This document shows positions 20 through 62,696 of a stretch of DNA of 64,000 bases, one piece after another (positions within the stretch are counted from its first letter, which is position 1; each line of letters begins with the position of its first letter). Origin of the DNA: a virus; the IMG/VR virus record IMGVR_UViG_3300045988_125079, positions 32,001 through 96,000 of that record; one strand, given 5' to 3'. The notes under the pieces were generated by a model. It was not told where the DNA came from. It saw only the letters and a list, made by a program, of their open reading frames with translations, and searched no databases. The position numbers and the translations under genes are program-made.

Positions 20-95
20 TGGCACGCCTGTTTCGATTCGAACGAAAATCCACTGGGTTTAGAGCCCATTCCTTTACCAATTAAGGTACAGACGC
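20..95 (-). tRNA. tRNA-Sup(CUA), amber suppressor (possibly Gln-derived)
   Basis: 76-nt minus-strand cloverleaf. Acceptor GCGTCTG/CAGGCGT with G1-U72 and U4-G69 wobbles. D arm CCTT-AATTGGTA-AAGG. Anticodon loop C-U-CUA-A-A. T arm TTTCG-TTCGAAT-CGAAA. G73 and CCA are encoded. Confidence 0.8.
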
Positions 96-798: not shown

Positions 799-821
799 AT
801 GATAAACCTCCCGCCAGTAAC

Positions 822-900
822 TGGTGTGATCGATGGGGCTCGAACCCACGAAAACCCTCTGATTAAAAGTCAGATGCTCTACCAACTGAGCTACGATCAC
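822..900 (-). tRNA. tRNA-Lys(UUU)
   Basis: Acceptor GTGATCG/CGATCAC. D arm GCTC-AGTTGGTA-GAGC. Anticodon loop CTTTTAA. T arm GTGGG-TTCGAGC-CCCAT. A73 and CCA are encoded. Variable region is 8 nt. Confidence 0.85.
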
Positions 901-1987: not shown

Positions 1988-2009
1988 GATTTTATCCTCC
2001 TAATTTATT

Positions 2010-2076
2010 TGAAGAAGTAGGATTCGAACCTACACTCGGGCTTTCGACCCAGCTCTACCAGTTAAGCTATTCTCCC
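2010..2076 (-). ncRNA. degenerate tRNA-like RNA (truncated anticodon arm)
   Basis: Acceptor GGGAGAA/TTCTTC with G3-U70. Normal D arm (GCTT-AACTGGTA-GAGC) and T arm (GTAGG-TTCGAAT-CCTAC). Only about 17 nt occupy the position of the anticodon arm plus variable loop. Loop TCGAAAG lacks U33. No CCA. The 5' end is preceded by the AUAU leader seen at other tRNAs here. Confidence 0.45.
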
Positions 2077-14015: not shown

Positions 14016-14582
14016 TTATTCCTCGTTTACAATTTCGATTTGACACATCTTCATGGCGGCAAGTGCATTCTTGTGAGACTCAGGAGTAACGCCGGCACAG
14101 CAGCTTGCATCCACAATGATAGGTACCGACGGTAGAGCAGCTTTGAGCAGCATTGCATTAGAGATCACGCAGATATCAGTACAGAGACCAACCAGAGTAA
14201 TAGAAGTGATGTCCGCACTGGTGCACCAAAAAACATCTTTCAGATCACTTGCCAACCGGAATGATCCAAATGTGAATTTATCGTAAACCGGATTATTTTC
14301 ACACCAGTCTTCATCGGGGATCGTTGCATCGACCTCATCGACAAGCTGCCAGCCTCGTGTACCGCGCAGACAATGTTTAACAGGAAGGCGCTTGCCCTCT
14401 TGGGTTTCGAGATAATTGTTATGGTGAGTATCCCGGGTATACAGGACCTTACCTTTCCAACTCTTGATCTTCTCCACAACCTTCGGCACAATTGCCTGAG
14501 CTTCTGGAGTGCCAAGAGCGCCGGTCACAAAATCGTTCTGCATATCCACAACAATCAGAATATCAGCCTTTGTCTTTTCCAT
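14016..14582 (-). CDS. pncA: nicotinamidase / isochorismatase-family hydrolase
   Basis: ILIVVDMQNDF and TLVGLCTDICV provide the Asp, Lys and Cys catalytic pattern of PncA-type enzymes. Confidence 0.75.
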   Translation of the reverse strand: MEKTKADILIVVDMQNDFVTGALGTPEAQAIVPKVVEKIKSWKGKVLYTRDTHHNNYLETQEGKRLPVKHCLRGTRGWQLVDEVDATIPDEDWCENNPVYDKFTFGSFRLASDLKDVFWCTSADITSITLVGLCTDICVISNAMLLKAALPSVPIIVDASCCAGVTPESHKNALAAMKMCQIEIVNEE

Positions 14583-14594
14583 AAGAACTCTCCC

Positions 14595-15794: not shown

Positions 15795-15828
15795 AAATCA
15801 CTCACTTTCTATTGTAATTTTTTACAAT

Positions 15829-16581
15829 TTACTTGACCCAGTTTCTCATAAAGGTAGGCATTGGAAGCATTTTAAACATATTTGCATTGTGAAGCCTATC
15901 GATTTTTGCTGCCGTTTCAGTATCCCCACCAAAGTCTCCAGTACGAATATACTTATCCAGAAATTCGTATGTGAATCCAAGATTGTCTTCGTCCGTTTTA
16001 CCACTCAACCCATCCTGCGGAATTTTGTTGATAAACTTATCAGGCAAGCCAAGCAAAGTTCCAACCGCCTTAACTTCGGTTACTGTTAAATCGCCCAATG
16101 GACTAAATTGACCAACAGTGTCACCAAAAACACTTCCATACCCGGTGTACCGCTCACTATAGTTCGAATTATTGCTCACCCGCCCATTCCTGCTCTGTGC
16201 CACCATGAACAGAGTTGCCATACGGATGCGAGCCGGCAAATTCACACGAGCCTGCTTGGTATCCACGATCCCACCAGTACGGCCAGATTCCAGCAGTGTA
16301 TTCACCGTGCCCGCGATATTGATCTCATGTGAGTCGATGTCGAGGTACTTCACTACCTCACGCGCCACATCAATATCGCTCTGAACACCCTGCGGCATCA
16401 GAACACCAATGACGCGATCCTTGCCAATGGCCTCACAGCACAGAGCCGCCACAATAGTAGAATCCTTGCCACCAGAGATTCCGACGACTGCGTTGCACTC
16501 AGGGCCGTTCTTACGGAAGTAGTTGCGAATCCAGTTGATCAATTCTTCCTTAGTTTTCTTTGCATCGAATGTATAATTCAT
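15829..16581 (-). CDS. nadE: NH3-dependent NAD+ synthetase
   Basis: GISGGKDSTIVAAL is the PP-loop motif (SGGxDS). Length of about 250 aa fits NadE. Confidence 0.8.
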   Translation of the reverse strand: MNYTFDAKKTKEELINWIRNYFRKNGPECNAVVGISGGKDSTIVAALCCEAIGKDRVIGVLMPQGVQSDIDVAREVVKYLDIDSHEINIAGTVNTLLESGRTGGIVDTKQARVNLPARIRMATLFMVAQSRNGRVSNNSNYSERYTGYGSVFGDTVGQFSPLGDLTVTEVKAVGTLLGLPDKFINKIPQDGLSGKTDEDNLGFTYEFLDKYIRTGDFGGDTETAAKIDRLHNANMFKMLPMPTFMRNWVK

Positions 16582-16594
16582 AATTCATTCCTCC

Positions 16595-17059
16595 TTACAG
16601 TTTCCACAGCTCCACATCAACACCCTGGAATGCAGCATCAATATTCTTTTTGACCGTATCCCAGTTTGCACCGCCACGGACACAGCCGATCTTATACGGC
16701 ATTGCTACCTTGAGGTTTCCAGCACGAGCGATATCTGCAACGGTACTGAGCGCTTTTGTCAGAGCATCGATAGAGGTGTACTGCTTCCCGTTATAACCGA
16801 AATCTTCCTGACCGAAACAGTTAGCGATCCAGCGGCTCCCCTCTTCATTCACAGGAACTAGCTGTGCTACACCGAGATTCTGAGCAGGATCATTCATACA
16901 GCGCTCACATAGATCACGATACTGTTCGTATACGGCTGGATACCGTTCACGAACTTCTTTAGCAACACCGGACCCCATAACACCCTGACAATTGACCTGA
17001 TGACAGATAATGTCAGCATCAGAATCAAATACGTTGCCCTCTTTGATCACAACAGCCAT
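16595..17059 (-). CDS. macro-domain protein (ADP-ribose binding/hydrolase)
   Basis: ICHQVNCQGVMGSGVAKEV is a typical macro-domain glycine-rich loop. Start set at the Met 9 nt after GGAGG. Confidence 0.7.
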   Translation of the reverse strand: MAVVIKEGNVFDSDADIICHQVNCQGVMGSGVAKEVRERYPAVYEQYRDLCERCMNDPAQNLGVAQLVPVNEEGSRWIANCFGQEDFGYNGKQYTSIDALTKALSTVADIARAGNLKVAMPYKIGCVRGGANWDTVKKNIDAAFQGVDVELWKL

Positions 17060-17065
17060 CAGCAT

Positions 17066-17278
17066 TCACCTCCGATTCAACTCTTTGATTCCAAAATATT
17101 GCGCTCCTCGTTGACTACGCAAATTAAACTGCTCAAGCTCTGGGGTCCATACAACCACATCCATCTCATCAAAAGCCCCTGCATGAATTAACTTCAGAGC
17201 TTCTTTTCTATCGCATTTGCGAATAACTTTTCCATCGTACCAAAAGCGAATTAAGTTATCAGTGGGTTTATAAATCAT
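17066..17278 (-). CDS. hypothetical protein (70 aa)
   Basis: ORF track trimmed to the ATG (MIYKPTDN), which overlaps the NAMPT stop (TGATG). Confidence 0.5.
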   Translation of the reverse strand: MIYKPTDNLIRFWYDGKVIRKCDRKEALKLIHAGAFDEMDVVVWTPELEQFNLRSQRGAQYFGIKELNRR

Positions 17279-18756
17279 CAAAACTTTCCTTCCCACAGTC
17301 GATCGCGAACTTCTTTCAGACTGTACTCTTTTACCATCTCGCCATTACGGAATACAGTCTGCAACAGGTTGCCGTCGGAATGAGCAGCGTGATCCATCAA
17401 GCCATCTGTATAGGTCAGTTTTCCAGAATCATCCTTGGTGACATAGCACATACCCTTCAGACTCTTCTTAAAGTGATCAGTGTCGGTTTTGGGGTCTTTG
17501 AAGATTTGAATCTCCTTGCCATTGACCACTCCATAAGTTGCCTTAACTGCCATGCCAAAAGTATCGCGGGTAAACGGCTTCAACTGACCATTCTGCTCGA
17601 TGCACTGCATGGAAAAAGAACCAACACCGAGACTGACATTATTGCAGGCGAAGCCGTGTGCTTTGAGTTCGGCATAAATCTTTTCACAGCGCTGCACAGT
17701 AATCGAATCCCCGTATAGTGCCTTCACATGCGGGTCGAGCACCTTGTAGCCCTTACTGTTGACTGTGCCACCGAAGATATCCCACAGATGGTAAACAGTC
17801 TGCGTGACGATTTCTACCGGATCACCAGAGTCGCCACGAATCAGCAGCGTGCCATTGTGCGCCATAATCTCGTCTTTGAGCTGGGGTAGGATATTATCGA
17901 CCAGATTCCAATAGTCGTAGGAATCAGATACCATACTGAAGCTCATATTGGGATACAGCTCAGTCAGCGCCCGGCGGATGAAAGTGATCTCGTCTCCATC
18001 GACAGCGAAGTTAGAACACATCACACTATGCTCGGTGCTAATAGCGCCAAACGCAACGGGCTCCTTAGTGCAATCACAGCGATACATTTCTTCCAGATAC
18101 GGAATCGCAGGAACAGTGGCCGTATTCAAAAAGCTCAGACACCACCCAGCGCTGGATTTGACAGCAGACTGCATACACTCCTGACCACGGAAACTGAAAT
18201 CGCCCAGAGCACGAGCATGAGGCACGCCATCCTCCACGGTTTCATCGTAATATTTGTCCACGATATCGCGGTACAGGGTGCCGACCGTTGCAGAAATCAT
18301 CGGATGCCACAGCTCAGAGCTCATAAAGGATTCGAGGAACTGCGGAACCCATGCGAAATCAGGATGCGTATTGCTCATCTCAAGGAACGGCACATGAATC
18401 GGGCAGCGAGTGCCCTCGGGCAGTGCTTTGATCTCGACAGGAAGATAGCCCAGGTCATGCAGGGCAGCAATCTTATCGATATCATAAGCGTCTTTGCCAA
18501 TGGTTGCGTCCAGGACACGCTGATAATTTGAGACAACCCACTCCTTTGGGAAATCAAAAAACCAACGTTTAAAATAATTCTGCAGATAATTCTTGCAGAA
18601 CGCCTGAACACCAAACACGACGACTTCATCCACGCCATCCAGACGGCTCATACGAGGAGTAAAGTAACTGACCAGCTTGGTAGTGCCAGCCGGGAACTGC
18701 TTACTGTGAGTTGTCTTGTAGAAGTCACACAACAGCATCGGGTTAATATTGATCAT
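17278..18756 (-). CDS. nadV: nicotinamide phosphoribosyltransferase family (NAMPT/NadV; may instead be the NARP1 Namat type)
   Basis: 492 aa. N-terminal LLCDFYKTTH. Overall NAPRTase/NAMPT-like layout, including ALYGDSIT. Confidence 0.75.
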   Translation of the reverse strand: MININPMLLCDFYKTTHSKQFPAGTTKLVSYFTPRMSRLDGVDEVVVFGVQAFCKNYLQNYFKRWFFDFPKEWVVSNYQRVLDATIGKDAYDIDKIAALHDLGYLPVEIKALPEGTRCPIHVPFLEMSNTHPDFAWVPQFLESFMSSELWHPMISATVGTLYRDIVDKYYDETVEDGVPHARALGDFSFRGQECMQSAVKSSAGWCLSFLNTATVPAIPYLEEMYRCDCTKEPVAFGAISTEHSVMCSNFAVDGDEITFIRRALTELYPNMSFSMVSDSYDYWNLVDNILPQLKDEIMAHNGTLLIRGDSGDPVEIVTQTVYHLWDIFGGTVNSKGYKVLDPHVKALYGDSITVQRCEKIYAELKAHGFACNNVSLGVGSFSMQCIEQNGQLKPFTRDTFGMAVKATYGVVNGKEIQIFKDPKTDTDHFKKSLKGMCYVTKDDSGKLTYTDGLMDHAAHSDGNLLQTVFRNGEMVKEYSLKEVRDRLWEGKF

Positions 18757-22308: not shown

Positions 22309-22575
22309 TTACAGCAGTGACCGACACGTAAAAGGATTAGCCAGACCGACAAACATATCATCAGACCAAATAGTGTCTTTATTTGACTCTTCGATCATGT
22401 ATCCGCCCAGTCTATATCCGGAAATCGTTACAACTTTCCCAGCAAGACGTTTTCTTGTCGGCAACGACACTCCGATTGTCAGAATGCTTTTACCAGAAGA
22501 CATATAATGGTTTTTCCCTGGTTCAAATTTATCTATCACGCGAACTCTATCCCCAAGCTTATATTTGTAATCCAA
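22309..22575 (-). CDS. small beta-barrel-like protein with CxSLL-COOH tail (FTCRSLL)
   Basis: (TTG)DYKYKLGDRVRV...TIWSDDMF...FTCRSLL. Confidence 0.65.
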   Translation of the reverse strand: MDYKYKLGDRVRVIDKFEPGKNHYMSSGKSILTIGVSLPTRKRLAGKVVTISGYRLGGYMIEESNKDTIWSDDMFVGLANPFTCRSLL

Positions 22576-24645
22576 TTAAATCACCACTTTCAGAACTCGC
22601 TCAGTAGCTCCCTGCACCTTGACAATGAAGGAGTCATGCTTTGTCTCAGAGAAACCAACGCCAGACAGCTGGTCATCGACAGACTGGACCGCCATCTGAG
22701 AACCGAGAGCTTCAAACACCCGCTTATGCTGCAGAAGTTCTGCTTTCAGAAATTCGTTGTAGAATCCGTTCGGCTTTTCAGGGTTGACACAATCCTTCAG
22801 CATAAAGAAGTAGTGACGGTTGCCGTTTCCGGTCTGCTCGTCCCAGTAGTTTGGAGAGTACATGGCCACAGAAACAGGAACGAACTGGTTGGAATTCACA
22901 CTCCAGATTTCGCGGGTGCTGGTAGAACTGGGCAGCTGCTCCTTGATAGAGAACTTGCCATCCTTCAGCGTGACCTTTGCCACGGCGACATTCTGACCCT
23001 GATGCAGCGGCTTATCGTAGTTAAACGAGTAGATGTTGCCATCGAACTCGATCTCAGCACGGAAACCGGTTTTTCCGCCACGACCAGCGAAACAATGAAC
23101 ATAGAAACTGTATTCGCCCTCCTTCATCTTTTTGATATCAGGCCAGGTGATGTTCTCGACTGCGACACGATTACGACCAGGCTGCATGATGTCAACATCC
23201 AGAACACCGCCCGTAGTGTAATTACGTTTTGCGCCAAAATAGATGTGGTTCTTATCGGGTTCAATGCAATGAGCATCCTCATCGTTTTCGTCCCACTCGC
23301 ACGACATATCATTCCACTGAATAGAGAAACGCAGAACGCCGTCGATTTTACCGCCAGCATTTTTGACGTTCTCCCGGATCTGGCTGTCAGTCACGTTACC
23401 CGTATATGCCCAACTAAAACCGTTCGCCCACTTGAACATAGATGGCGCAGCCTTATCCTGCGGCGCAATCAGAGACACCATATTCTTCTCGAAACGATTC
23501 TCCATGAACAGTTCCAGCCCAGTCGCAGTCGGAAGCACGTCCTTGATGAACTTGTCGATGCCGATTTCCTCTGCACGACCAAACTTCTTAGGATCAATCG
23601 CAACAGTCTTAGCCATTGCTTCAAACGGATTTGTAGCACCAGCAATACGAGGAGCAGCGTCACGATTACAGAACAGGATATTGTTGGCAGTGATATCGTC
23701 CAGAGTAGCAAACCGACGACCCAGACTGTTCATATAACCCAGCTCAGTGACGGTTTTCTGTGCATCCTCCAGCATCTTCTTGGTGAAAATCGCCTTGGGA
23801 CGCTTATAGTTAGCTGGTGCAACCACCTTTTCAAAAGCAGTCACAGCAGAATCCACATCCATACCTTCACTCAGATTAATAAGCAGAGTACCGATTGCAG
23901 TGTTACGAATACGAAGCTGTCCCATATCGCCCCATGCCGGTGCCAGCCAAACATAAGCGGCCTTGTTCTCAGCCGGAGTATTGTCATATTCAATCTTGTT
24001 AGTCTTAAATACCTTGACGGCGTTTTCAAATTCCTTACCGCGATACAAACTATTCTGTGCAATCAGCTCCAGAACAGTATCAACAGCATCCATGGTCAGT
24101 TCTTCCAGAGAACGCTTGTATACGTTTGCGGAATCACGCCACTGAGCCATCTTGGTAGCCACATCATCAGGCCGCACAACGAAACGCTGCGGAATCTTGA
24201 CTGCGAAATGATCCCAAGTACGCACATCCTTGTGGTTTTCATCGTACTCATAGTTCATCTCGGTGCCGAACATATTACCAGAACCGATCATATTGCGACT
24301 GACAAAGTACGGATTCACAATAGTGCGGCTCTTCACATAAGCATCCAGAGCGTCCACAACAGGCTGATACTTGGCAGACTTTGCATCGAAATTCCACACA
24401 GTAATCATTTTTCCATCATCAAACGCCACCAGCTTGCCGATATTCTTCACAAAACGGCGGCAGCAGGAACAATCATACTCACGGCGCTTACGGAACAGCT
24501 CATTCATACCGGCCGGGAAGCTGTCAAGATACAGATTGTACAGTTCATCCTCGTCTGCATCGGTGATAAACAGTGGATTCTCACCCTTCACCATCTCATT
24601 GAAGTGGTCCTGCAGAAGTGCGCGAAATTCCTTAAAATCAGACAT
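22576..24645 (-). CDS. large conserved hypothetical protein (689 aa)
   Basis: Long ORF with balanced composition. N-terminal REYDCSCCRRF cysteine motif. The 723-aa plus-strand ORF opposite it is judged a shadow. Confidence 0.75.
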   Translation of the reverse strand: MSDFKEFRALLQDHFNEMVKGENPLFITDADEDELYNLYLDSFPAGMNELFRKRREYDCSCCRRFVKNIGKLVAFDDGKMITVWNFDAKSAKYQPVVDALDAYVKSRTIVNPYFVSRNMIGSGNMFGTEMNYEYDENHKDVRTWDHFAVKIPQRFVVRPDDVATKMAQWRDSANVYKRSLEELTMDAVDTVLELIAQNSLYRGKEFENAVKVFKTNKIEYDNTPAENKAAYVWLAPAWGDMGQLRIRNTAIGTLLINLSEGMDVDSAVTAFEKVVAPANYKRPKAIFTKKMLEDAQKTVTELGYMNSLGRRFATLDDITANNILFCNRDAAPRIAGATNPFEAMAKTVAIDPKKFGRAEEIGIDKFIKDVLPTATGLELFMENRFEKNMVSLIAPQDKAAPSMFKWANGFSWAYTGNVTDSQIRENVKNAGGKIDGVLRFSIQWNDMSCEWDENDEDAHCIEPDKNHIYFGAKRNYTTGGVLDVDIMQPGRNRVAVENITWPDIKKMKEGEYSFYVHCFAGRGGKTGFRAEIEFDGNIYSFNYDKPLHQGQNVAVAKVTLKDGKFSIKEQLPSSTSTREIWSVNSNQFVPVSVAMYSPNYWDEQTGNGNRHYFFMLKDCVNPEKPNGFYNEFLKAELLQHKRVFEALGSQMAVQSVDDQLSGVGFSETKHDSFIVKVQGATERVLKVVI

Positions 24646-24934
24646 TGTTATTCTCCTTTGCTTTCATATAATTTTTGAGAAAAATACTCAAAAGTTCATC
24701 GGTGACTTCAAATCCTTGCCAGATTCGAGAGCTCTTATCTGTTCCAACTTGAGCATATAAATTTGTATTGCAATCAACCTCAATTGTAGAATCCGGATAT
24801 TTTTCAATCTCGTCATACTCATCAATTGCACTATTATTTATATAAAGATCAGCCTCATTTCTGCTATCAAAAAAACGAGGGAATTCGCACGATCCTTCAG
24901 AATCATATTCAAAAACACACCAGATCTTGTTCAT
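24638..24934 (-). CDS. hypothetical acidic protein (98 aa)
   Basis: ORF track. ATG start. Confidence 0.55.
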   Translation of the reverse strand: MNKIWCVFEYDSEGSCEFPRFFDSRNEADLYINNSAIDEYDEIEKYPDSTIEVDCNTNLYAQVGTDKSSRIWQGFEVTDELLSIFLKNYMKAKENNNV

Positions 24935-27675: not shown

Positions 27676-28908
27676 TTATGCGGCATCTTTTGGACGAAGA
27701 TCGTCTTTAATCATAGCCATCACATCAACATGGTATTTGTTGTTGGCTTTTGAAATCAACGCTTTGATTTTGTCTTTTTCTACCATTTTATAATAGCTGA
27801 TAAGACCATTAAGCTCCTGAACGTCTTCAATTGTCCAAGGAGCATTTTCCTTTTTACAGCGGATATAGTTGGACATCATAATCTTGAATGTCTTGATGTT
27901 ACGCCATCCAACCGTGATTTCATTGTTCTGATTCCACATCAAGCCGAGCACCCAGTTTTTACTCGAATGACGATTGCCGTAATGAGTTTTTTCTTCATTC
28001 AGAGTAAATGGAGCATGGATATACGCCAGAATATTTTTGATTACATCCTGCATCTCCATATAGTCAAAACTCAAATAACAACTAATCGTGATATCATCCG
28101 CATATCTTGTATAAGTAAAATCACGAGTAATGCCATCTTTCATTTTGAAACCATGACGAATTTTTCGACTCAGCAAATGATCAAATGGAATCATCATGAC
28201 ATTCGTAAGCCAAGGACTCAAGGGGCTTCCCTGCGGTAATCCATTGCGAAGAAAAGCAATCTTTAATGCATCACTCAACGCTTCATGGCCGCCGAATGGA
28301 TCTTGCATGATAAGAGCGAACGGATAAATCACACTCAACATTCCCATAACAAACTCTGGATTAGAGCTGGGGAAAAATCCGTGAAAGTCGAATTTTACAG
28401 ACCAGTTATTTTCATAAATAACCTGCTCTTTTTCTCCTGTTGTCGGGTTCGTTTTAGTCCGCACATGCCCTTCCTGATGTTTTTTCACAGCAGTCAAAGT
28501 AGACCGATGCGGAACATAAGCATGTGCCGCAGTATGATAGTCTGCAAGCATAAAGCTTTTTAACAACGTTTGCAGTTCGTTCAATGCGTCACTAAGGATT
28601 TTGTCTGGAGCATCAATTGGCCGCATGCCACCTGTTTTTTTGGGAATTTCATAGTGAGTATAGTGAACAGACATATCCGGTTCAGATTCGAGCTGTTCGT
28701 ATTTCTTATTAAACGCTTCGAGTTCTCGAATCATTCGGTTAATATCTGTCATGGCTCTCAAACGTGGGGTAAGTTCGTCTCTACAAACAGTCACAGTCGA
28801 AGTAACATCTTCTCGATATTTCAATTTCTCAGACTCGATAATGCCTGCAAGAATCTCATCGATTGTGATCTGTCTCGTTTTAGGGGCTGCTTTGTATGTA
28901 ATATACAT
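27676..28908 (-). CDS. reverse transcriptase (retron/Abi/DRT-like, stand-alone RT domain)
   Basis: RT motifs KKTGGMRPIDAP (1), HAYVPHRS (2a), KFDFHGFFPS (3), GLPQGSPLSPWLTN (4), YTRYADDITIS (5) and KNWVLGL (7). No endonuclease, maturase or Cas domains. Confidence 0.85.
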   Translation of the reverse strand: MYITYKAAPKTRQITIDEILAGIIESEKLKYREDVTSTVTVCRDELTPRLRAMTDINRMIRELEAFNKKYEQLESEPDMSVHYTHYEIPKKTGGMRPIDAPDKILSDALNELQTLLKSFMLADYHTAAHAYVPHRSTLTAVKKHQEGHVRTKTNPTTGEKEQVIYENNWSVKFDFHGFFPSSNPEFVMGMLSVIYPFALIMQDPFGGHEALSDALKIAFLRNGLPQGSPLSPWLTNVMMIPFDHLLSRKIRHGFKMKDGITRDFTYTRYADDITISCYLSFDYMEMQDVIKNILAYIHAPFTLNEEKTHYGNRHSSKNWVLGLMWNQNNEITVGWRNIKTFKIMMSNYIRCKKENAPWTIEDVQELNGLISYYKMVEKDKIKALISKANNKYHVDVMAMIKDDLRPKDAA

Positions 28909-37948: not shown

Positions 37949-38353
37949 ACAGAGAGGAGGATTTAACCATGTACACCATCAGCGAGGAGCAAGCGGCTTA
38001 CCAATGCGCAATACTCGGTCGCGTCAGTAGATACAACACATAAGCGATTAGGTCTCTTATGGTGTCCATCCTCAAAGGCTGCCCTTTTCAAATTCACTCT
38101 CCGATACTCTGGGCACCGAGCATCTATGCCACTTTCGCAGGCAGTGCCAAATTCGCCTACTCATAATAGAGCCATGCACATCCACTGTGGCGGGTAGCTA
38201 CTCCCGTTGCATCATGGTTATTATTTTCGGTCAGAGCGTTATGGGTGTGTCAGAGGGGGAGTATGATCACCCACGGTGGAATTGCGCCACCCCAGCGACC
38301 GCGCACTACACTACGCTGCCGCATCGAACCTAGCTTTGCGGCTTGCACCGCTA

Positions 38354-38737
38354 TGGACCCGGTGGGATTCGAACCCACGTCCAAAACTAATACTCGATTA
38401 CAATTTTCTTACGCAATAGCCAGCATTTAGAATTTTGAAAAGGAATTCATGCCGCCGACACAGCAACCTTAGGGACGTAACGGTTGTTACATCACTCCAC
38501 CACTCGGTTTTGACGTCCGAGAACGCTAGTGTTTCTTACCGTTTACATCGGGTTCCGGGATTTATTCTTTGAACCGTCAAGCATTTACCTGCCTATCAGG
38601 ATGCTGTTTTGGGCACGGCATCAAGCCGCGCAACGATAACTGTTGTTGTTAGCGTTTATTTGTTTTTTGCCTCGTAAGGTGATGGCCGACCTGCGAATTG
38701 TAATTTTTCTTAGCCCTGTCGAAAACCTTTCGGGCCC
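38354..38737 (-). ncRNA. ~384-nt structured RNA closed by a tRNA-like acceptor stem and T arm
   Basis: 5' GGGCCCG pairs with 3' CGGGTCC, giving a G3-U70 pair. T arm GTGGG-TTCGAAT-CCCAC. A long-range 9-bp helix joins ATTACAATT and AATTGTAAT. Internal helices include GGACGT/ACGTCC and GTAAC/GTTAC. The 5' end follows the AUAU leader. Confidence 0.35.
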
Positions 38738-46462: not shown

Positions 46463-46742
46463 GTAATTTGAACCTCCTTTCTGATGTGTTCGTTCGCTTA
46501 CACGACCTTTAAGATACTTACGAAATTCAATTTTGAATCCGTGCACTGACTCGCGATCGAAAAACGTTTTCACCCTCGGGCGGAACGCTTGCTCTTACTG
46601 CTACGCTTTTTCAACGTGCTTTTAAAACTGGGCTTGGAACCAGCACGGTTCTGCAGAACTCGTGGCCGCATTACACTCCGGCACTATTGCACCGGAGCGT
46701 CCTCTGCGTTATTCATCGCAACAATCGAAATAAACGTCATAA

Positions 46743-53355: not shown

Positions 53356-54592
53356 AATTCTTTACCTCTCTTTTGCGATTGTGTACAGTGCTATCCGTAT
53401 GATAACACTTGACGCGGTGCAAACTTGCGCTTGCGCCGTCTCAAGTGCCCGCCATGCTTTTACACATGACGAACACTGAAAAACTGTTATTTTTGTACGC
53501 TAAAGTGGTAGTTTTAAGCCTTGCTTTAGCGTAAAAGTGACTGCACAAATTGCGCTTGTATTCATGCAAGGCATTCCAGCTTTTGACATTTTGCAAGCTT
53601 GCGATTGCACGTCCACCACTAAAGAGTATAGTTAGGACTTGTGCAACGGCTACTTTTGTGCGTGCCAGCGCTTTTCCGACACTTATCGGGCGGTATCTGG
53701 CACATCATCACAGTGCACCCTATTAAGGCGCACCTATAGCTTATTTATCCAGTCGGCTATAGTCGGCAAGGTATATGCTATCCCCACGGAAGGCGTTTGA
53801 AATGGGACGCAAGACGAATACACACAAGTTGCAACGTCCGGCATAGTTCCCGCGCCAAAGCGTGGTCGTTCTACCTGTTTAAATTTTCAAAGTGCAACTG
53901 CTCCCCGGAAGCGGGTGCCGTTCCGGTGTTTCCCGTTCCCTCTGGAGTGACTACAGTATAGCCTAAATAATTTTTTTGTGCAACATGTCTACATGCCAGT
54001 TATCAGAACGCCAGTATAAAGAATGGCCGTGCCAGCCTATATATAAATAGGTATAAATTCCGTTCTGCCAGCAAAGTAAATAGCACCTTTTAACGGTAGG
54101 TACGATTTTCCGAAAAGCCGCATGATTCCTAGAGAAAATGGACATTCGGCGCGGCACGTGGCGGGGGTGGTTAAAAATCGAGAAATGGGGTGTGCCAGCC
54201 CTAAAGGGCTAAGTTGTTTCATCTCCCCATCACCAAATTATCTCTTCGGTTCCACCTTTAGTGTGCGTCATTTGTACATTAGCTTCGTGCTTCAATTCCT
54301 GTCCACGCATCACAACTTTGCTCATTTTATTCAATTAATCCGCTTAACAGCCCGCTTTCCTAAATCGCCACAAACTATATCCGAAGCTCCATCCGGAAAT
54401 CATCGTGTCATCGTTATATTTTATTATGTATTATTTTGTATATTTTCTGCCATTTGTTGCCATTTATTGTATTTTATCGCTGTTAAAAACGCATTAAATC
54501 GCTATATTTTCATCGTATTTTCGCTATTTTTTCGCCATTTATTGAATATTTTATTAAATTTCGCCTCATTCCGGAAATATTCATAATTTTAC

Positions 54593-54621
54593 TTGATATT
54601 TTGCATATTTAGGGGTATAAT
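54593..54621 (+). promoter_or_regulatory. sigma70-type promoter (TTGATA-17-TATAAT) for the plus-strand block
   Basis: TTGATA at 54593-54598, a 17-nt spacer, TATAAT at 54616-54621. Confidence 0.55.
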
Positions 54622-54629
54622 TATAAAAA

Positions 54630-54647
54630 CAACTGTTATTATCTACC
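54630..54647 (-). promoter_or_regulatory. conserved 19-nt motif, copy 4 (18/19 match)
   Basis: CAACTGTTATTATCTACC(g) is in the same plus-strand-text orientation as copies 1-3. Lies just downstream of the plus-strand -10. Followed by the inverted repeat CTACC-gtatagaat-GGTAG. Confidence 0.45.
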
Positions 54648-54698
54648 GTATAGAATGGTAGAGTAACATTTATTATAAGAAAGGACTGAATATCTGTT

Positions 54699-56027
54699 AT
54701 GAAATTTTATGACACTTCCGCCCTACTCGATCTCGGTGCTGCAGCATTCACAAGTCAGTTCTTGATTGCAGACATGACTTTGCACGAGTTAGAAGATATT
54801 AAAACAAGTGGTAAAAAGAACGAAGAAACTCGTTAGAAGGCACGTACCGTAACCCGCCTGCTTGCTGAACACCGCGACGATGGTAGCTTCCGAGTAGTAG
54901 CCGTTCCCATGTCTTCCCTATTCTACATCTTGGATGGCAAGCCAATCAGTGACAATAATGACGCGACGATCATGGCAACCGCCTATTGGTATCTGGATGA
55001 GCTGTGTCACAATTTGAATGACGCGATTGAAGCCGGTCTCACAGACGCACAGCGACAGATCCAAGCTGATATCGATTCTTTTAAATTTGTCACCAGCGAC
55101 TTAAGTTGTGCCAATATCGCCAGCGGTATTCTTGATCTACCGACTGAGTTCACTTTTCCTAACGCAACAGCTGCGAAAAACGACTATAAAGGATGGATAG
55201 AGGTCGCCCTAGAAGATGGCGGCGAAGAAGCGTTGGCTATGGCCTACTCTAAAGATGTCGAGCAGAAGAACTTGTTTGATACGCCCACTAACGGTTATGT
55301 CTTAATCCCAAATGCAGACGCTGATGGTAACACGGCTGGACTTCGCTGGGATGGCTCGCGCTATGTACCTATTAAGTATAAAAAAATCAGCAACCGCTTC
55401 ACTGGGGACATTCGCCCTCTCAACAATCAGCAGAAACTCGCCTTTGATATGCTGCAGAACGACAACATCACCGTCAAGATGCTTGCTGGAACATTCGGCA
55501 GTGGTAAAACGATGCTCATGGTGTCATCCGCTATTGATATGATCGAGAAACATAAAATTGACAAACTGATCTGGATTCGCAACAACATCGAAGTCAAGAA
55601 CACAAAAGAACTGGGAGCACTTCCCGGCACTCTACTAGAGAAGCTAGGAGCGGCCTCATTTGCTGGACCTCTTGCAGACCATTTGGGCGGAGAAAGCGGT
55701 TTGGAGTATTGGATCAAGAATGGGCAAGTAGAGGTGGCGCATCTCGGCTTCATTCGTGGGCGCGACTATAAGAATGCTATCTTGCTAGTATCAGAAGCAG
55801 AGAACTTGACAAAAGAACACATCCAGTTGCTGCTCGGCCGTGTAGGTGAAGGATCTATGCTGTGGCTTGACGGCGACTTGAAGCAGACGGATGAGGCGGT
55901 ATTTGAAAATAACAGTGGTATGCGCAAGGCAATCTCTGCTTTGACTGGAAATCCGCACTTTGCTTATGTGTACATGCCGAAGACAGAACGCAGCGAGACC
56001 GCACAGCTTGCCGATCTACTCGATTGA
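54699..56027 (+). CDS. phoH: PIN-domain + PhoH-like ATPase (YlaK-like), with in-frame TAG at 54834-54836
   Basis: ATG at 54699 gives MKFYDTSALLDLG...HELEDIK (PIN-like) in the same frame as ORF 54909-56027, which has Walker A GTFGSGKT. The two parts are separated by a single TAG. Confidence 0.7.
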
Positions 56028-56040
56028 GGCGTCGCGCAAG

Positions 56041-56475
56041 ATGATAGAAGTAAAAATAAGCGGCCTGAAAGTAGCGGACTACTGGTCTCCTACCGACGGA
56101 TGGAACTATGACGCCATTGATAGTCTTGCAAAAGAATTGTACGACCGCTACCGAGAAGCCGAAGCCGAACAGACAGTGGAGTTATTCAAGAACTACATAG
56201 AAAAAATGAGTATACTACATGAAATCGATCCATTCTCTATTGACTATATCCGCGATCAGATTGAGTGGATGATTCGTCCTTTGATGCATCGTGGAATGAC
56301 GATGAAAAAACGGTTGCAGATAAACGCATTGACCTATGAGATCGTAGAAAAGTTGCTTCCCTCTTATCTTGATAATATGGCTATGCTACATCAGTTACAA
56401 AAAGAATTAGAAAATGCGGCTTTGCATCGATATTTGATTACGCCATTTGGCAAAAGGACAGCTGTATGGAAATAA
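56041..56475 (+). CDS. hypothetical protein (144 aa)
   Basis: ORF track trimmed to MIEVKISG. Confidence 0.55.
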   Translation: MIEVKISGLKVADYWSPTDGWNYDAIDSLAKELYDRYREAEAEQTVELFKNYIEKMSILHEIDPFSIDYIRDQIEWMIRPLMHRGMTMKKRLQINALTYEIVEKLLPSYLDNMAMLHQLQKELENAALHRYLITPFGKRTAVWK

Positions 56476-56714
56476 TGAATGAAGCTAATTTGAATATGTT
56501 CTGGGCGATTGATGAGTATTTGACTTATAAGATGTCGCGATACTTTAATGCGTATATTCTTCTGATTGGTTTAAAAGACGATTCTGGTTTCTTTATGAAT
56601 TTTGAAGGTGGCAAAGGTGGAGTCGAAGGTCATTTATATAAAGAAAAAGGTCCAGCGGTATTCGCATTTATTGGCGACAATTACAAGATTCTACGAAATG
56701 ACGATGCAAAGTAG
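56466..56714 (+). CDS. hypothetical protein (82 aa); ends in TAG (would extend to 56771 if TAG is sense)
   Basis: ORF track. The next in-frame stop after the TAG is TGA at 56769-56771. Confidence 0.5.
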   Translation: MEIMNEANLNMFWAIDEYLTYKMSRYFNAYILLIGLKDDSGFFMNFEGGKGGVEGHLYKEKGPAVFAFIGDNYKILRNDDAK

Positions 56715-56790
56715 ATTGTAGATTTAGCATTAAAACTATGCAGTCAATACGAAGATCAATTATTTAATTGAATAGGAGGTTCCACAGGGT

Positions 56791-57264
56791 ATGTATAAAA
56801 TATTCGCTCCACGCGGCGGTGGCCGCACCTATCAAATATGTAAATACGCGATTGAAAACGACTGCGACATTATTGTGCCCGCTCTGAATTCTATCCAACA
56901 CATTATAACGATCATAATGCAAATCTGCTATGATTCTAATGGTGAATATGAATATATTGATGACAATAACAATTTGCGTGATATCAAAATTAAAACACCA
57001 AACGACACGATTGTGATCCACGTTTTTGACGCTGATAGTTTCCGACATGCACAATTTGGCCCCGCCAGAAGAAAACCCGTGGTGATCGACGATATTGATG
57101 AATGTATGAAGCGTATTATAAATTCCGACTTGATTGAAGCTATTTCTATAGCTACATATGACCCATCTGATGTCGCACTTCATCCTAAAATCACAGATGC
57201 AGATGATCCAGCTATAGGAAGACCGGCACTGCAACCGCAACTGACCTGTAGGAGTTTACTATGA
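56791..57264 (+). CDS. protein with P-loop-like N-terminus and CxSLL-COOH tail (LTCRSLL)
   Basis: APRGGGRT...VVIDDID...LTCRSLL. AGGAGG upstream. Confidence 0.65.
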   Translation: MYKIFAPRGGGRTYQICKYAIENDCDIIVPALNSIQHIITIIMQICYDSNGEYEYIDDNNNLRDIKIKTPNDTIVIHVFDADSFRHAQFGPARRKPVVIDDIDECMKRIINSDLIEAISIATYDPSDVALHPKITDADDPAIGRPALQPQLTCRSLL

Positions 57265-57605
57265 CAACAGATATTTTTGGAACGAGTAATTTTAAAAAGA
57301 ACGAAAAGGAAATACTAGACCTGGCTCGACATAAATTATATGCAGAACTTAGTGAAGAGCGTGGACGTAAAGTAGATTCAGTAACGATTTATGTTGATAT
57401 GGATCGCAGATATATACATTATGACTGGGATTTAACTTTTACTCTTAATCCGAAATATTTTATCAAAGTCGGAATTATATCTGGGTTACGGATGGAAATT
57501 ATTGAAGGCGACGCTGCAGAACTAATTTATAAGCGATATCTTGAATTGGTTAGCAAGTATACAATGCAATCTAAAAAATCGTTTGTTTGTAGGAGTTTGC
57601 TATGA
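57261..57605 (+). CDS. protein with CxSLL-COOH tail (FVCRSLL)
   Basis: The ATG sits inside the previous gene's tail codons (cTATGA), with AGGAG 7 nt upstream. Confidence 0.65.
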   Translation: MTTDIFGTSNFKKNEKEILDLARHKLYAELSEERGRKVDSVTIYVDMDRRYIHYDWDLTFTLNPKYFIKVGIISGLRMEIIEGDAAELIYKRYLELVSKYTMQSKKSFVCRSLL

Positions 57606-58021
57606 ATTACACTGTAACCGCCAGAGTCGCAATGCTGACTTCTGTAAATTATAATGCCAAAAATGGAATATACGTCCCATTAAACGATAATAACATGGTA
57701 TGGGTCATGCCATTCAAATCGTACCGTGATTTTAGAGCATGGTATTTAAGAGCAGACGATAGTTCAAAAATATTTCATCAGATATGGTTTGGACCCGGAT
57801 ATACCTATGATTCCATGAGTGATGTAGCGACACGGCTTGCAAAAGAATTTGATCAGCTTAACAATATGGATTATTACCGACTTGTTAATAACGATAGTAT
57901 TTTAGATTTGATACATCCTATCAAGCTTGACTATACGTGGACTTTCGATCATGTCGTAAAAATCACAGCGCCATGGTATGAACGAAATAAAAAGAATCTC
58001 GTATGCTACAGCCTATTGTAA
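57602..58021 (+). CDS. protein with CxSLL-COOH tail (LVCYSLL)
   Basis: Same ATGA-type coupling as 57261. Confidence 0.65.
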   Translation: MNYTVTARVAMLTSVNYNAKNGIYVPLNDNNMVWVMPFKSYRDFRAWYLRADDSSKIFHQIWFGPGYTYDSMSDVATRLAKEFDQLNNMDYYRLVNNDSILDLIHPIKLDYTWTFDHVVKITAPWYERNKKNLVCYSLL

Positions 58022-58047: not shown

Positions 58048-58320
58048 ATGACACGAGAAGAAACTATAAAGTTAGTTGCTGAGAGCATATTTAGCGATCC
58101 AAGTATTAAGGCAACTCAACGGCAAGATGATCTTATTAAAGTAATAACATGTATGGCTGTGAATGGTGTTGACCATGTTTTGTATAAAGATAAAAAATAT
58201 AGACTTGATTGCGACGCAGGTTGGTTATTGTCTGACTTTATTATAAACGATTTTTATACATATCCGAAACCAATATACATAAATAAACAGCAGCCGCTAA
58301 TTTGCAGGAGTTTATTATGA
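58048..58320 (+). CDS. protein with CxSLL-COOH tail (LICRSLL)
   Basis: ORF track trimmed to MTREETIK, which has GGGGAAGGAA upstream. Confidence 0.6.
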   Translation: MTREETIKLVAESIFSDPSIKATQRQDDLIKVITCMAVNGVDHVLYKDKKYRLDCDAGWLLSDFIINDFYTYPKPIYINKQQPLICRSLL

Positions 58321-59075
58321 ATAGAATTGATTTTCAAAATGGATCGTAGATTCAAACGATAGAAACCAATCACGACGAATCTCAGGATGAAGTAATTAAT
58401 GTTTGGTCTGCAGATGGCAAACCAGTTAGAATCTGTCGTGAAAGCAATCCGAGCATTCAAGTGGTAAAACAATGTGCTGCAGATTATATAAAAAGATGGG
58501 CTGAAGTAAAACATTCAATTTCGACAATGCCTGAAGTATCAGACAAGTTTGACTATGAGTTTTATAACTACTCCCCTTCTCCGACTATTAATACGATTGA
58601 TTTATTTAATCGAGAATATGAAATGATAGTAAATGCAGAACGACAATCACATAAAGAAGAGGACGATATGAGAATTTTATTTGTAAGTCCAGAAAAATAC
58701 GATGCCGTATGTTCTTGGTATGATAATTTAGACACTGTACAAAAACACCGTAAAGTAATCGTAATATGCAAATCGCCGGACGAATTCCGTGAAAAGTTTG
58801 ACTATAGTAAAATGAATGCACAGTGTACTATGTTCTACTTTGATGAATATCTTGGATTGGCTAAGTCGTTTGAATATTGCAAATTATTTACTAAGTTGTA
58901 TGGAGAAGCTGATGTTAGATACATCTGTGGAAATAAAATGCGACAGATAAATATAGATGATTTAATGTGCCGCAATACATTTGATTGGTTTAAAGAGTTT
59001 TCTGTCGTGCCAGAATGCTTGGAAGATCTTATTCGAAATAGTAAGAGAGCCTTCGTTTGTAAGAGTCTATTATGA
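58317..59075 (+). CDS. protein with CxSLL-COOH tail (FVCKSLL) and in-frame TAG at 58347-58349
   Basis: The coupled ATG at 58317 (ttATGa) gives MNRIDFQNGS-TAG-IQTIETNHDES..., in frame with ORF 58461-59075. Confidence 0.55.
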
Positions 59076-60152: not shown

Positions 60153-62696
60153 TTGTTTAGTCCACCATTATATAGCGTACTAAAATTTAACTTGAATTAT
60201 ATCGTTTCTCATAACTATAATTTTAAACTGACACCAGAAGAGATGGAGCAGTATAAAGTCTTGCAGGGTGACGATATGCTGTTCAGACAGATTCGGCTCA
60301 TTTCCGACGACTAGAATAAATTCCAGCGCTTTATTATCTTTGTTGATGCAACAGGCGGCCAAAACCACCCTGATGCTATCGATCATTTAGTAGAGCATGG
60401 ATTCAAATTTAATGGTCAAAAATATCTGTTCTGTGAACGTAGTGCAAGTATGGTTCGTCAGAGTATGTTGAGTTTTGTTGAGCGACATATCTACCCTGAA
60501 CTCGATCGCCGTGTAAGCATGGAACTGGATTTTTCTGAGACACCAACTGTCCTGAGCAAGTATTATGCATATCGTGGTTTGATGCTGAGCAGCTGCCACT
60601 GTCTGGAGAACTGGTATCCCAAAATGATTGTTGTTCCAGATTATATGACAACGATCAAGAATCAGTGGATCGAGTACCTGGTAGACAAAACTGTGACGTT
60701 TAATGACCGCAAAACAGGCAAAGAACGTACCTGGACCCAGAAAGATATCGCCACAAAAACAGTTGACATTGATATCAACGCCTTTGATGGTGCTGGAATA
60801 TGCCACCCAAGTATCATGCGCGAATTTGAAAAGCGTATCGGTACTTCTGAACGGATGAATAGCTTGATTCTACGTGCTCCATATATCAAGGGTTGCTTAC
60901 ACGAGATTGATTACGAGCGTTTTTTTGAAGAGAACGGCGTTACAAAAATCAAGGATATCTGGGGTATGGAATATGATGTAACACCTGGCAGTGAACCAAT
61001 GATTATTATTACTGCTTCAATGTACAAGGGTCTCAAATATTTCAAGAAAACTGGTACCTATTCTGACTGGGAGAGATACTGGGAACTCTTCAAGAAGTAC
61101 GATAACTGCCTTGGTGTAGCCAAATGGAACTTTACGCTTGAACAAGAACCGCTTTCCACCCGTAGCAACTATCAGGTTATTCAAGACCTACAGCTTGACA
61201 ATGAGTCTTTTAAGCATCTAGCCGACGACAGCATTACCTGGTATCAGAATATTGTCAAAGGCGACCCGATTTATACATACTGCTTCCTTGGTTTACTTGC
61301 CGAGAACAATGACCCGATGAATCATTACATGGCTGCTGCCCTGCGTAATCCAGTGATGGTAAAAGAGCCGGCAATCAAAGATTATATTCACTCGCTGCTT
61401 GATAAATATCGCAATGAGATGAAGTGCGGTCGGCTTTGGATGAATGCTACTTTTAAGTTCTGGGCTCCTGACCTTATCGCACTATTGCAGCATATTGGTG
61501 GCCTTCCTGTGACTGGCTGCCTTGAAGACGGTGAGTTCTACAGTTTCGATCGTCGTGGTGTGATGGAAGGAGACCGCTTAATTGAGCGCAATCCCCATAT
61601 CTCTGTTGCTGAGCATGTAAAGGCCAAGGCCGTAGACAACGAATACACCCATAAATACTGCAGCCATCTTCAGAATGTTGCTATGGTGAATATCAAATCC
61701 ATCGTGGCTTCCAGACTTAATGGTTCAGATTTTGACGGCGACCTGGTTTTAATCATCGACAATCCGCTGATGATGAGTGGTGTTCCTGATAATATCCCCA
61801 TTACACTTGATGTTGAAGATAAGATCACTGCGTTAGCAGAATGTGATATTGTGAAGAACAAAGTTGCTTGCACCATTCGTGGATTGAAAAGTTCTATTGG
61901 TGAGATCTCAAACTACGCAACTGCATACCATAATAAGGTTCCGACCATGGAAAAGACCAAAAAGCTCTATCACGATAATATTTCGCTTTTGAGTATCTGC
62001 AACGGAAAAGCTATCGATTATGCCAAAACCGGTGTTCTGTATCCGATCCCGCGTAATGTAGCAGCTTATGGTCGTCCTCTACCCTACTTTATGAAGTATG
62101 CAGGTCCTTACTACGCACGTTTACATAATCTCAGCAAGGCACATAGCAACATGAACCTGCTTTGCATGAGTCTGGAGCGTTGGGAGCGCGGTGTACGGTG
62201 GCGCAAAGAGCCGGCAGGCAGCTTTGATTGGCATATCATGTACGACCCAGAGGTCTCCTATGACCAGGCAGTCTTTGATGAGATCGAAGCCATTTTCTTG
62301 GATTTCAACAAATGCCGCAAGGAACAGCTTGAGTTCGAAAAGAAATGCCGCAACTGGCAATTATATCATAAGGACATCGAGTCGCGTATTACCAAAGAAG
62401 AAGCCAAGACATATGAAACGAACTGGCAGGCGATCTACAATGTCTACCGTAACAAGTGCAAGCTGGTGTGTCCTGATGTGAGAGAGCTGGCGAATATTCT
62501 TGTAGTGCTTTGCTATGAGAAGTATCCAAATAAATTTAAGAAGTTCTTGTGGCACATGGCCGGCGCTGGTGTGGTCGAAAATATCAAGCCGGTTCTTGTT
62601 CAGTTACCAGTTCACGACCCGAACGGTGAGTATGAATATCTTGGCCAGCGATATAGTTTGGCTGAACCGAAAACTTATGAAGCGAGGGTGAAATAA
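60153..62696 (+). CDS. YonO-like single-subunit RNA polymerase (DPBB, DFDGD), with in-frame TAG at 60312-60314
   Basis: NGSDFDGDLVLII resembles the universal NADFDGD Mg-binding loop. ORF 60450-62696 extends upstream in frame through one TAG to a TTG at 60153, which lies 9 nt after GAGGAG. Confidence 0.6.

Follow-up and report, generated by a model that had tools for sequence, protein, structure and literature searches.

The locus described here raises the question of whether a TAG triplet located inside a viral gene for a PIN-PhoH protein is a stop codon or is read as an amino acid and, in the latter case, as which one. The gene lies in a stretch of 64,000 nucleotides (nt) of IMG/VR record IMGVR_UViG_3300045988_125079 (positions 32,001 to 96,000 of the record), which is referred to as the window and supplies all the coordinates used below. 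Comparison with related loci makes it likely that some genes of this phage use UAG as a sense codon and that it would be read through, most likely as Trp, by a tRNA with a CUA anticodon derived from tRNA-Trp.

The TAG within the PIN-PhoH gene

The initial annotation, made from the nucleotides of the window, had taken the ATG at 54699 as the opening of a PIN-like N-terminus, continued the frame through a lone TAG into the open reading frame (ORF) at 54909 with the PhoH Walker A motif GTFGSGKT, and pointed out that the standard code would separate the PIN domain from the ATPase. Each of these proposals held. The two ATG codons are 210 nt apart (54909-54699), the frame remains open as far as the TGA, and the TAG, which follows an N-terminal sequence of MKFYDTSALL…EETR, is the only one in the gene (Table 1). 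In the ORF list made with code 11, the gene was split into 54699..54836 (45 amino acids, aa) and 54909..56027 (372 aa), and the standard code would thus sever the catalytic N-terminus of the PIN domain from the rest of the protein.

In the readthrough protein, a Pfam PIN_4 match covered residues 5-101, across the TAG (23.3 bits versus a gathering cutoff of 21.9), a PhoH match covered residues 238-428 (E=1.3e-35), and PDB entry 3b85 (PhoH2) was matched by sequence (E=7e-18) and by fold (4.9e-6). Acidic residues invariant in the homologs are located on both sides of the TAG, namely D5, E30 and E32 before it and D85, D88 and D134 after it, and Foldseek revealed that the N-terminal 150 residues resemble the PIN domain of SMG6 (2dok, probability 0.98). 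An AlphaFold2 (AF2) model, built on homolog P0001 (93% identical) and not on the readthrough sequence with W46, had a predicted local distance difference test score of 80-93 in the N-terminal domain, the C-terminal half being poorly predicted. More than 100 homologs of 440-463 aa span 100% of the readthrough protein, so that its N-terminal segment, which the initial annotation had thought might be missing from homologs, is covered by them. A megablast search with positions 54000-58000 gave no match among annotated phages.

The protein is similar to those of the YlaK/PhoH2 type in that a PIN domain, whose acidic residues are conserved, forms the N-terminal part and a PhoH P-loop ATPase the C-terminal part, and its homologs are named "predicted ribonuclease YlaK" by the Joint Genome Institute (JGI). 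It differs from that type in three respects: an insert of about 90 poorly conserved residues lies between the domains, the gene is phage-borne and the first in a late operon, and the Walker B region reads SEAEN. This motif is invariant in the phage PhoH family where 3b85 has DEAQN, the Glu being kept and the Asp replaced, and the ATPase chemistry of the family may differ. The gene product is an ordinary PIN-PhoH; the notable part is the code.

The same codon-46 TAG recurs on several diverged haplotypes in L001-L009, L017-L019 and three IMG/VR contigs, which include no fewer than 10 assemblies made independently from separate samples; therefore, it is not the sequencing or assembly error that the initial annotation had allowed for. 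Such an error, or a decaying pseudogene, could be imagined since a single-base change from TAT or TAC would give TAG, but it is scarcely credible: the recurrence of the identical TAG refutes it, purifying selection over the gene is strong, and neighbouring genes show in-frame TAGs too. Among the eight distinct TAG-bearing alleles, the ratio of nonsynonymous to synonymous polymorphism (pN/pS) was 0.16 in codons 1-45, 0.07 in codons 47-70 and 0.26 in the rest of the gene. No in-frame ATG, GTG or TTG was found between the TAG and the ATG at 54909, and no Shine-Dalgarno sequence precedes that ATG. The stretch from the TAG to 54909 is consequently translatable by readthrough alone, and readthrough is the sole reading that fits its purifying selection.

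A genuine stop at codon 46 corresponds to the code-11 annotation, in which the locus has two products: a peptide of 45 aa and a PhoH of 372 aa starting from the ATG at 54909. Gene callers using code 11 do annotate this split in several assemblies, and the in-frame ATG exists; however, the 372-aa product would start inside the PIN fold and be devoid of D5, E30 and E32, the family is uniformly 440-463 aa long, and the low pN/pS of codons 47-70, together with the missing Shine-Dalgarno sequence, also speaks against it, making a true stop very improbable. Judged from these alignments, the TAG is shown to be real and its two flanks to be under selection as one reading frame.

The residue for which TAG stands

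Aligning the gene with its relatives, as the initial annotation had suggested, gave at codon 46 TAT or TAC (Tyr) in 37 sequences, GCT (Ala) in 21 and TAG in 8. Codon 46 is one of the variable positions, which make up the minority of TAG sites, and Trp would here replace the Tyr or Ala of the relatives. In close homologs from the databases (P0001, P0002, P0008 and P0012), a Gln stands at this position, and it was at first taken as evidence for Gln. The underlying DNA, however, proved to be TAG in a locus that does not translate to the stored protein; the Gln is therefore a product of gene calling with code 15 and no evidence for that residue, and the argument was dropped.

For a broader examination, 75 IMG/VR loci around the gene of a YonO-type RNA polymerase (66-100% identity) were combined with loci from ENA and Logan, 82 in all. 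ORFs were called with TAG as sense, the dominant frame was kept, the products were clustered into families, and every TAG-containing column was examined. Residue counts were restricted to plus-strand families with products of 150 aa or longer; the 17 families of this kind had 40 TAG columns with a partner residue. Trp was the majority partner in 21 columns, compared with 7 for Tyr and 5 for Gln. A null model that lets every sense codon one mutational step away give rise to TAG, with weights for codon usage and a 2:1 preference for transitions, predicts Trp in 12% of the columns (p=5e-10 for the excess). When only columns with at least three distinct TAG sequences were considered, Trp was the majority partner in 9 of 14 (p=5e-6). 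Sixteen TAG columns, many with TAG at high frequency, had Trp as the only partner versus three with Gln only, the latter being singletons in three different genomes. Viewed from the conserved residues, TAG occurred in 23 of 82 conserved-Trp columns, in 12 of 190 conserved-Gln columns and in less than 1.4% of those of every other residue. BLOSUM-based log-likelihoods summed over columns were +72 nats for Trp, +28 for Tyr, +11 for Phe and -10 for Gln.

In several columns, TAG is frequent beside TGG. The respective counts of TAG and TGG were 36 and 33 at PhoH column 330 (the W of DYKGW in the window), 40 and 17 at YonJ column 38, 32 and 18 at YonG column 251, 27 and 27 at terminase column 448, and 37 and 16 at column 185 of a 270-aa gene. 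Alignment of TAG with conserved Trp (TGG), as expected of TAG read as Trp, was thus observed, and the alignment with Gln expected under code 15 did not prevail in the 40 TAG columns. The comparison with code 15 (TAG=Gln) suggested in the initial annotation calls for one correction, since the comparative data point to Trp in this phage group.

Decoding of TAG as Gln by a suppressor tRNA ("genetic code 15"), which is assumed for crAss-like, Lak and phAss-1 phages and by database gene callers, has in its favour that no other reassignment of TAG has been reported for phages, that the database proteins named above show Gln at codon 46, that U35 in a tRNA-Trp body favours glutaminyl-tRNA synthetase (GlnRS) in E. 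coli, and that a few TAGs do occupy conserved-Gln columns. We nevertheless regard it as improbable, given that the Gln residues of the databases are an annotation artefact, that the Gln-only columns and the log-likelihoods are as described, and that the candidate suppressor has its homolog in the tRNA-Trp of the phage group and shows no relationship to the phage tRNA-Gln (see below). The cultured Thomasclavelia phage TR-TP1, a standard-code outgroup of about 40% identity, was also tried as a guide to the residue and discarded as too divergent, its partners being, among others, Trp, Tyr (three positions), Phe and His (two positions).

The CUA tRNA and the proposed decoding

At a distance of about 54.7 kb from the PIN-PhoH TAG, the minus strand of the window encodes a tRNA whose anticodon is CUA (Table 1). 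Its G1·U72 pair, G73, encoded CCA end and anticodon loop CUCUAAA are conserved in relatives, and its cloverleaf is supported by compensatory changes in 12 of 19 pairs. In 44 of 64 loci around the neighbouring SLT gene, this tRNA occupies position X of the slot Lys(UUU)-X-Ser(UGA)-Glu(UUC), and in 9 of 11 loci with CCA only the same position is held by a tRNA-Trp(CCA). A second type of tRNA-Trp(CCA), situated before tRNA-Lys, was found in the other two CCA-only loci and in L171, the sole locus with both CCA and CUA tRNAs. The CCA and CUA tRNAs of the slot have in common acceptor pairs 3-7, the D-arm TAGCTTAATTG·TAAAG, the anticodon stem-loop GTCTC(C/T)AAAAC and G73, and their differences lie in the T-arm, in acceptor pairs 1 and 2 and in the anticodon, which has C35 in the former and U35 in the latter. 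The phage tRNA-Gln(UUG), in contrast, has U1-A72, A73 and the loop CUUUGAC, and with 41% identity it is unrelated to the CUA tRNA. As judged by sequence and synteny, the CUA tRNA is a homolog of the tRNA-Trp(CCA) of the relatives.

ARAGORN labelled the gene "tRNA-Pyl", a name that it applies to any CUA anticodon; the label was rejected because the cloverleaf is canonical, with a GG D-loop and a TTCGAAT T-loop. No pyl-like genes were noticed among annotated neighbours, though no search aimed at pyl genes was made. A blastn search of the CUA tRNA against phage genomes gave no informative isotype match, and an exact 24-nt tRNA pattern had no match in IMG/VR, in which a degenerate pattern was found in 8 contigs.

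In-frame TAGs accompany the CUA tRNA. Among contigs with both the tRNA and the operon regions available, those with the CUA tRNA (n=31) had 4-12 in-frame TAGs in the operon locus, those with CCA only (n=6) had 0-3, and those in which neither tRNA was found (n=4) had 1, 1, 1 and 8; the load in the CUA group differed from that of the other two groups pooled with a Mann-Whitney p=2e-5 not corrected for phylogeny. It was also noticed that L034, L036 and L069, with 95% YonO identity to the window, possess 0-1 in-frame TAGs versus 7-8 in L021-L039 over the same approximately 20 kb, and that the L034 contig has a tRNA-Trp(CCA) and no CUA tRNA. Comparison of such close relatives indicates that the use of the code has changed within a short span of evolution.

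We propose that a phage tRNA-Trp(CCA) would have become a tRNA(CUA) through a change of C35 to U, with fixed changes in the first two acceptor-stem pairs. The tRNA encoded at 20-95 would read the UAG at codon 46 and thereby yield the full 442-residue PIN-PhoH, most likely with Trp inserted. The tryptophanyl-tRNA synthetase (TrpRS) of the host would charge it with Trp despite U35, and decoding would compete with the host release factor 1 (RF1). Probes for TrpRS and RF1 had no match in 3.2 Mb of related sequence from partial genomes, and release factor 2 (RF2) was not probed separately. On these comparative grounds, the data establish an intact PIN-PhoH nuclease/ATPase as the predicted product of the phage, the synthesis of which would depend on a phage tRNA. 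We lean, somewhat cautiously, towards the wider view that a clade of human-gut phages of about 100-155 kb, with late genes like those of SPβ, has reassigned UAG to Trp by converting its own tRNA-Trp(CCA), a change not known to have been reported for a virus or bacterium.

By analogy, the E. coli amber suppressors of the su7/supU type consist of a tRNA-Trp body with C35 replaced by U and are mostly glutaminylated, and charging of a tRNA-Trp(CUA) with two amino acids has a precedent in E. coli. The CUA tRNA of the phage differs from su7/supU in its extra fixed acceptor-stem changes (G1·U72 and C2-G71) and in that the comparative data indicate Trp. The precedent counts for mixed decoding, in which the CUA tRNA would be charged by more than one synthetase (e.g. 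with Trp plus Gln, Lys or Tyr) or readthrough would be partial, and truncated and full-length products with heterogeneous residues would be made. It is also consistent with mixed decoding that about one third of the TAG columns, codon 46 included, are variable, with partners such as Tyr, His, Ala or Met, and that competition by RF1 is to be expected since no manipulation of release factors was found in these partial genomes. On the other hand, TAG is present at high frequency at strictly conserved Trp residues of essential genes, where another residue would not be tolerated, and the acceptor-stem changes fixed in all CUA alleles suggest tuning of identity. We consider mixed decoding unlikely.

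Decoding of UAG as Trp thus remains the reading we prefer, but several points weigh against it. Codon 46 is aligned with Tyr or Ala and not with Trp, and this site alone is therefore silent on the inserted residue; some TAGs, if few, stand at conserved-Gln columns; and the per-sequence counts come from related, phylogenetically non-independent sequences, a kinship that the column-level counts partly address. Locus L070/L118 (IMGVR_UViG_3300045988_118006) has eight operon TAGs, and ARAGORN reported neither a CUA tRNA nor a tRNA-Trp in its 20-kb tRNA-cluster locus; the suppressor may be located elsewhere or have been missed. All support for TAG as Trp is comparative. Furthermore, amber suppressors made from tRNA-Trp in E. 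coli are mostly charged with Gln, as GlnRS reads U35 (cited in 10.1101/2021.08.26.457843), and this preference means that charging of the CUA tRNA with Trp is not guaranteed.

Distribution of in-frame TAGs and comparison with known systems

Among NCBI metagenome contigs, ULRV01048940.1 (105.5 kb) matches the window, which has relatives of up to about 155 kb; the best explanation is that it is part of a gut Firmicutes phage of about 105-155 kb with a late gene set resembling that of SPβ. A weak clue to the host came from one 8.5-kb contig that was binned in a metagenome-assembled genome of Oscillospiraceae. Positions 1-54.6 kb carry minus-strand genes of accessory or early type, including a module for nicotinamide adenine dinucleotide (NAD) salvage with NAMPT, a Bro-N anti-repressor, a reverse transcriptase, HNH endonucleases, an AAA ATPase and an integrase-like gene, as well as at least 11 tRNAs and one transfer-messenger RNA (tmRNA). 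From 54.7 kb, a plus-strand operon encodes PIN-PhoH, several small proteins and the YonO-type single-subunit RNA polymerase, and past the window end it continues with YonJ-like and YonG-like genes, terminase, a 506-aa gene, YonD and YonB, for which Pfam matches to RdRP, YonJ_N, YonG_N/C, YonD_N and YonB were obtained in that order. The promoter-like site upstream of the PIN-PhoH gene (Table 1) is a consensus match alone, the count of such sites in the region being not above shuffled expectation.

Table 1. Positions of the genes, domains, codons and RNA elements discussed, in window coordinates
Feature	Position	Strand	Remarks
PIN-PhoH (YlaK-type) gene	54699..56027	+	442 codons; one in-frame TAG; stop TGA 56025-56027
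In-frame TAG of PIN-PhoH	54834..54836	+	codon 46; next base A; within helix 42-57 of PIN domain
PIN domain	54699..55148	+	residues 1-150; from Pfam, invariant columns, AF2 and Foldseek
PhoH P-loop ATPase domain	55410..55982	+	residues 238-428; from Pfam, 3b85 and invariant columns
Walker A GTFGSGKT	55488-55511	+	G264-T271; invariant among homologs
Walker B region SEAEN	55791-55805	+	S365 E366 A367 E368 N369 (residues 365-369)
Promoter-like site TTGATA-17-TATAAT	54593..54621	+	Sigma-70/SigA-type; 11/12 matches; about 78 nt 5' of ATG 54699
101-codon gene	56466..56771	+	in-frame TAG 56712-56714 (codon 83); TGG there in L008 and L009
251-aa gene	58317..59075	+	in-frame TAG 58347-58349 (codon 11 from ATG 58317); common to L008, L009 and L018
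YonO-type RNA polymerase	60153..62696	+	847 codons; TTG start after GAGGAG ribosome-binding site; in-frame TAG 60312-60314 (codon 54)
tRNA, anticodon CUA (reads UAG)	20..95	-	Rfam tRNA 58.6 bits
253-aa HNH_3 ORF	265-1026	-	ends in TAG; TAA four codons on
tRNA-Lys	822-900	-	
tRNA-like element	2009-2076	-	Rfam 39.5 bits; unreported by ARAGORN
NAD salvage module	14016-18756	-	
Nicotinamidase/isochorismatase	14016-14582	-	part of NAD salvage module
HNH/NUMOD homing-endonuclease gene	14595-15794		
NAMPT	17278-18756	-	part of NAD salvage module
723-aa ORF	22507-24678	+	
689-aa ORF	22576-24645	-	DUF8224/phrog_1735, E=1.5e-256
Reverse transcriptase	27676-28908	-	410 aa; Pfam RVT_1, E=2.9e-16; phrog_2825 "polymerase"
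tmRNA	38351-38737	-	Rfam 92.4 bits; ARAGORN tag peptide ANNNSYRCAA*
Type-P5 twister ribozyme match (RF02684)	46628-46708	-	45.9 bits; gathering cutoff 37.6

Besides the PIN-PhoH gene, three genes of the plus block in the window contain an in-frame TAG, and at codon 54 of the YonO polymerase the relatives have TGC, Tyr or Asp. Further TAGs occur downstream in sister contigs, in the 270-aa, YonJ-like, YonG-like and other genes. The plus block of the window had a TAG:TGG ratio of 4:43 and the minus block one of 0:176 (Fisher p=0.0018), and no supported in-frame TAG was found in the 54 kb of the latter; 11 candidates there from naive ORF calling with TAG as sense were rejected as N-terminal over-extensions or wrong-frame ORFs after comparison with the gene calls of L013 and L015. 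TAGs tend to sit early in genes (median relative position, 0.23). Counted over distinct contexts, the next base is a purine for 81% of TAGs and 63% of TGGs (p=6.5e-5), and each of the four in-frame TAGs of the window is followed by A. A following purine, as in TAG-A, favours amber suppression. As a separate observation, the terminase gene of L018 (14377-17185) and L020 (4546-7354) is split by an inserted 275-codon ORF of DUF723 type (homing-endonuclease-like) that itself has two in-frame TAGs, and in L017 (14364-16121) the terminase is intact, with 585 aa.

As a terminator, TAG was found at 2 of the 65 long ORFs of the window, each time with a TAA 1-4 codons on, and it ends at most 4% of genes in related loci. 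We had predicted that CUA-bearing genomes alone would avoid TAG terminators, and this failed: they are rare clade-wide (SLT-side loci L109-L172 and the window), and in CCA-only relatives, which have hardly any in-frame TAG, 1 of 174 genes ends in TAG. The comparison suggests that the loss of TAG stops preceded reassignment, or that the CCA-only genomes are revertants.

With TAG confined to the PhoH/YonO/structural operon, synthesis of the late polymerase and late proteins might await the build-up of the phage tRNA, which would then serve as the kind of translational timer envisaged by Borges et al. (10.1101/2021.08.26.457843). We put this model forward only tentatively, the timing of expression being read from SPβ synteny alone. 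It is at odds with internal TAGs in the other gene block of some relatives, with the terminase, portal-like and YonD genes, which often have no TAG, and with the scarcity of TAG terminators in CCA-only relatives as well.

The late region of SPβ (yonO...yonB) resembles that of the phage in having YonO, YonJ, YonG, terminase, YonD and YonB in the same order. The relationship is distant, the YonO of SPβ and that of the window being about 24% identical (tblastn, E=6e-15). SPβ and TR-TP1 both use the standard code, and TR-TP1 has the same late-region gene order. The function of YonO is reportedly the subject of work by Forrest and colleagues from 2017.

Amber codons for tryptophan are used in the plastids of Balanophoraceae (NCBI table 32, TAG→Trp), and to our knowledge the plastids of Balanophora have the sole natural code of this kind. 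They differ from the phage in extreme AT bias and genome-wide reassignment; the phage would recode part of its genome conditionally with its own tRNA. In the phage literature searched, TAG→Trp in phages was not found, the sole match being a plant-plastid paper; a plastid code with TAG→Trp is mentioned in bioRxiv 10.64898/2026.01.09.698701.

Recoding in gut phages has been described for the crAss-like, Lak, Sapphire, Agate, Jade and related clades (Ivanova 2014; 10.1101/2021.08.26.457843; PMC9523058), and TAG→Gln and TGA→Trp were the only phage recodings observed by Borges et al. The phage of the window is similar to these in its large size and gut habitat, its in-frame stops in conserved genes, a standard-code host, its own suppressor tRNA, the avoidance of the recoded stop as a terminator, and the existence of close relatives without recoding; within the window, though not in some relatives, the concentration of recoding in one block beside another that fits the standard code is similar as well. 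It is unlike them in that TAG aligns with Trp, that the suppressor comes from tRNA-Trp, and that density is low, with about 10-15% of Trp positions in one operon. There may be overlap between this lineage and the "Sapphire" clade, which comprises large phages with sparse TAG recoding.

A further phage, phAss-1 of the proposed Phassvirus (Babkin et al. 2023, PMC10607447; OQ749652), infects Clostridia of the human gut and has a genome of 136 kb in which numerous tRNAs, including Sup-CTA tRNAs, are encoded. It has a TAG inside a gene annotated as "PhoH family ribonuclease" and a NAMPT module, and its authors inferred TAG=Gln from TerL (terminase large subunit) alignments (PMC10607447). Similarity to the window is weakly colinear, no YonO-type polymerase was matched in it, and its suppressor tRNAs are dissimilar. 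Membership of the same phage group was rejected, since phAss-1 is distant: its PhoH is 24% identical and has the TAG at a different position.

Stop-codon recoding by phages with suppressor tRNAs is already known, and TAG→Trp would most likely be a third assignment beside TAG→Gln and TGA→Trp, the two that are hard-wired in gene callers and in the NCBI "code 15 clade". If it is correct, public-database proteins of an abundant gut phage group are mistranslated with Gln for Trp, including conserved Trp residues of terminase, RNA polymerase and PhoH, and the proposal that GlnRS alone can be co-opted for amber decoding would be contradicted. There would also be a natural tRNA-Trp(CUA) evidently working in Firmicutes, with G1·U72 and C2-G71 as candidate identity-tuning changes, which would be of interest for genetic-code expansion. 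Moreover, a code change would have been caught in progress, with sister genomes that have either the CCA or the CUA allele of a single tRNA locus and, in the operon, 0 as against 4-12 TAGs, and the surviving standard-code sisters with the CCA allele at that locus would let the change be traced allele by allele.

Other features were observed in the minus block (Table 1). The tmRNA lies amid the tRNA genes, and in a phage that reads a stop codon it may bear on ribosome rescue at UAG. Near the CUA tRNA, the HNH_3 ORF as called overlaps tRNA-Lys, and its true start is probably downstream of that tRNA. At the position equivalent to the tRNA-like element, ARAGORN gave for the relatives an odd tRNA with a two-base anticodon. 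The NAD salvage module consists of NAMPT, a Macro-domain protein, NAD synthase and nicotinamidase/isochorismatase, is interrupted by the inserted HNH/NUMOD gene, and is colinear with that of phAss-1 at 35-50% amino-acid identity. The 723-aa and 689-aa ORFs mirror each other on opposite strands; homologs were found for the minus-strand one alone, and the plus-strand one is therefore a shadow ORF. The reverse transcriptase gene belongs to the accessory block, and the twister ribozyme match is located in a stretch without ORFs of at least 100 aa.

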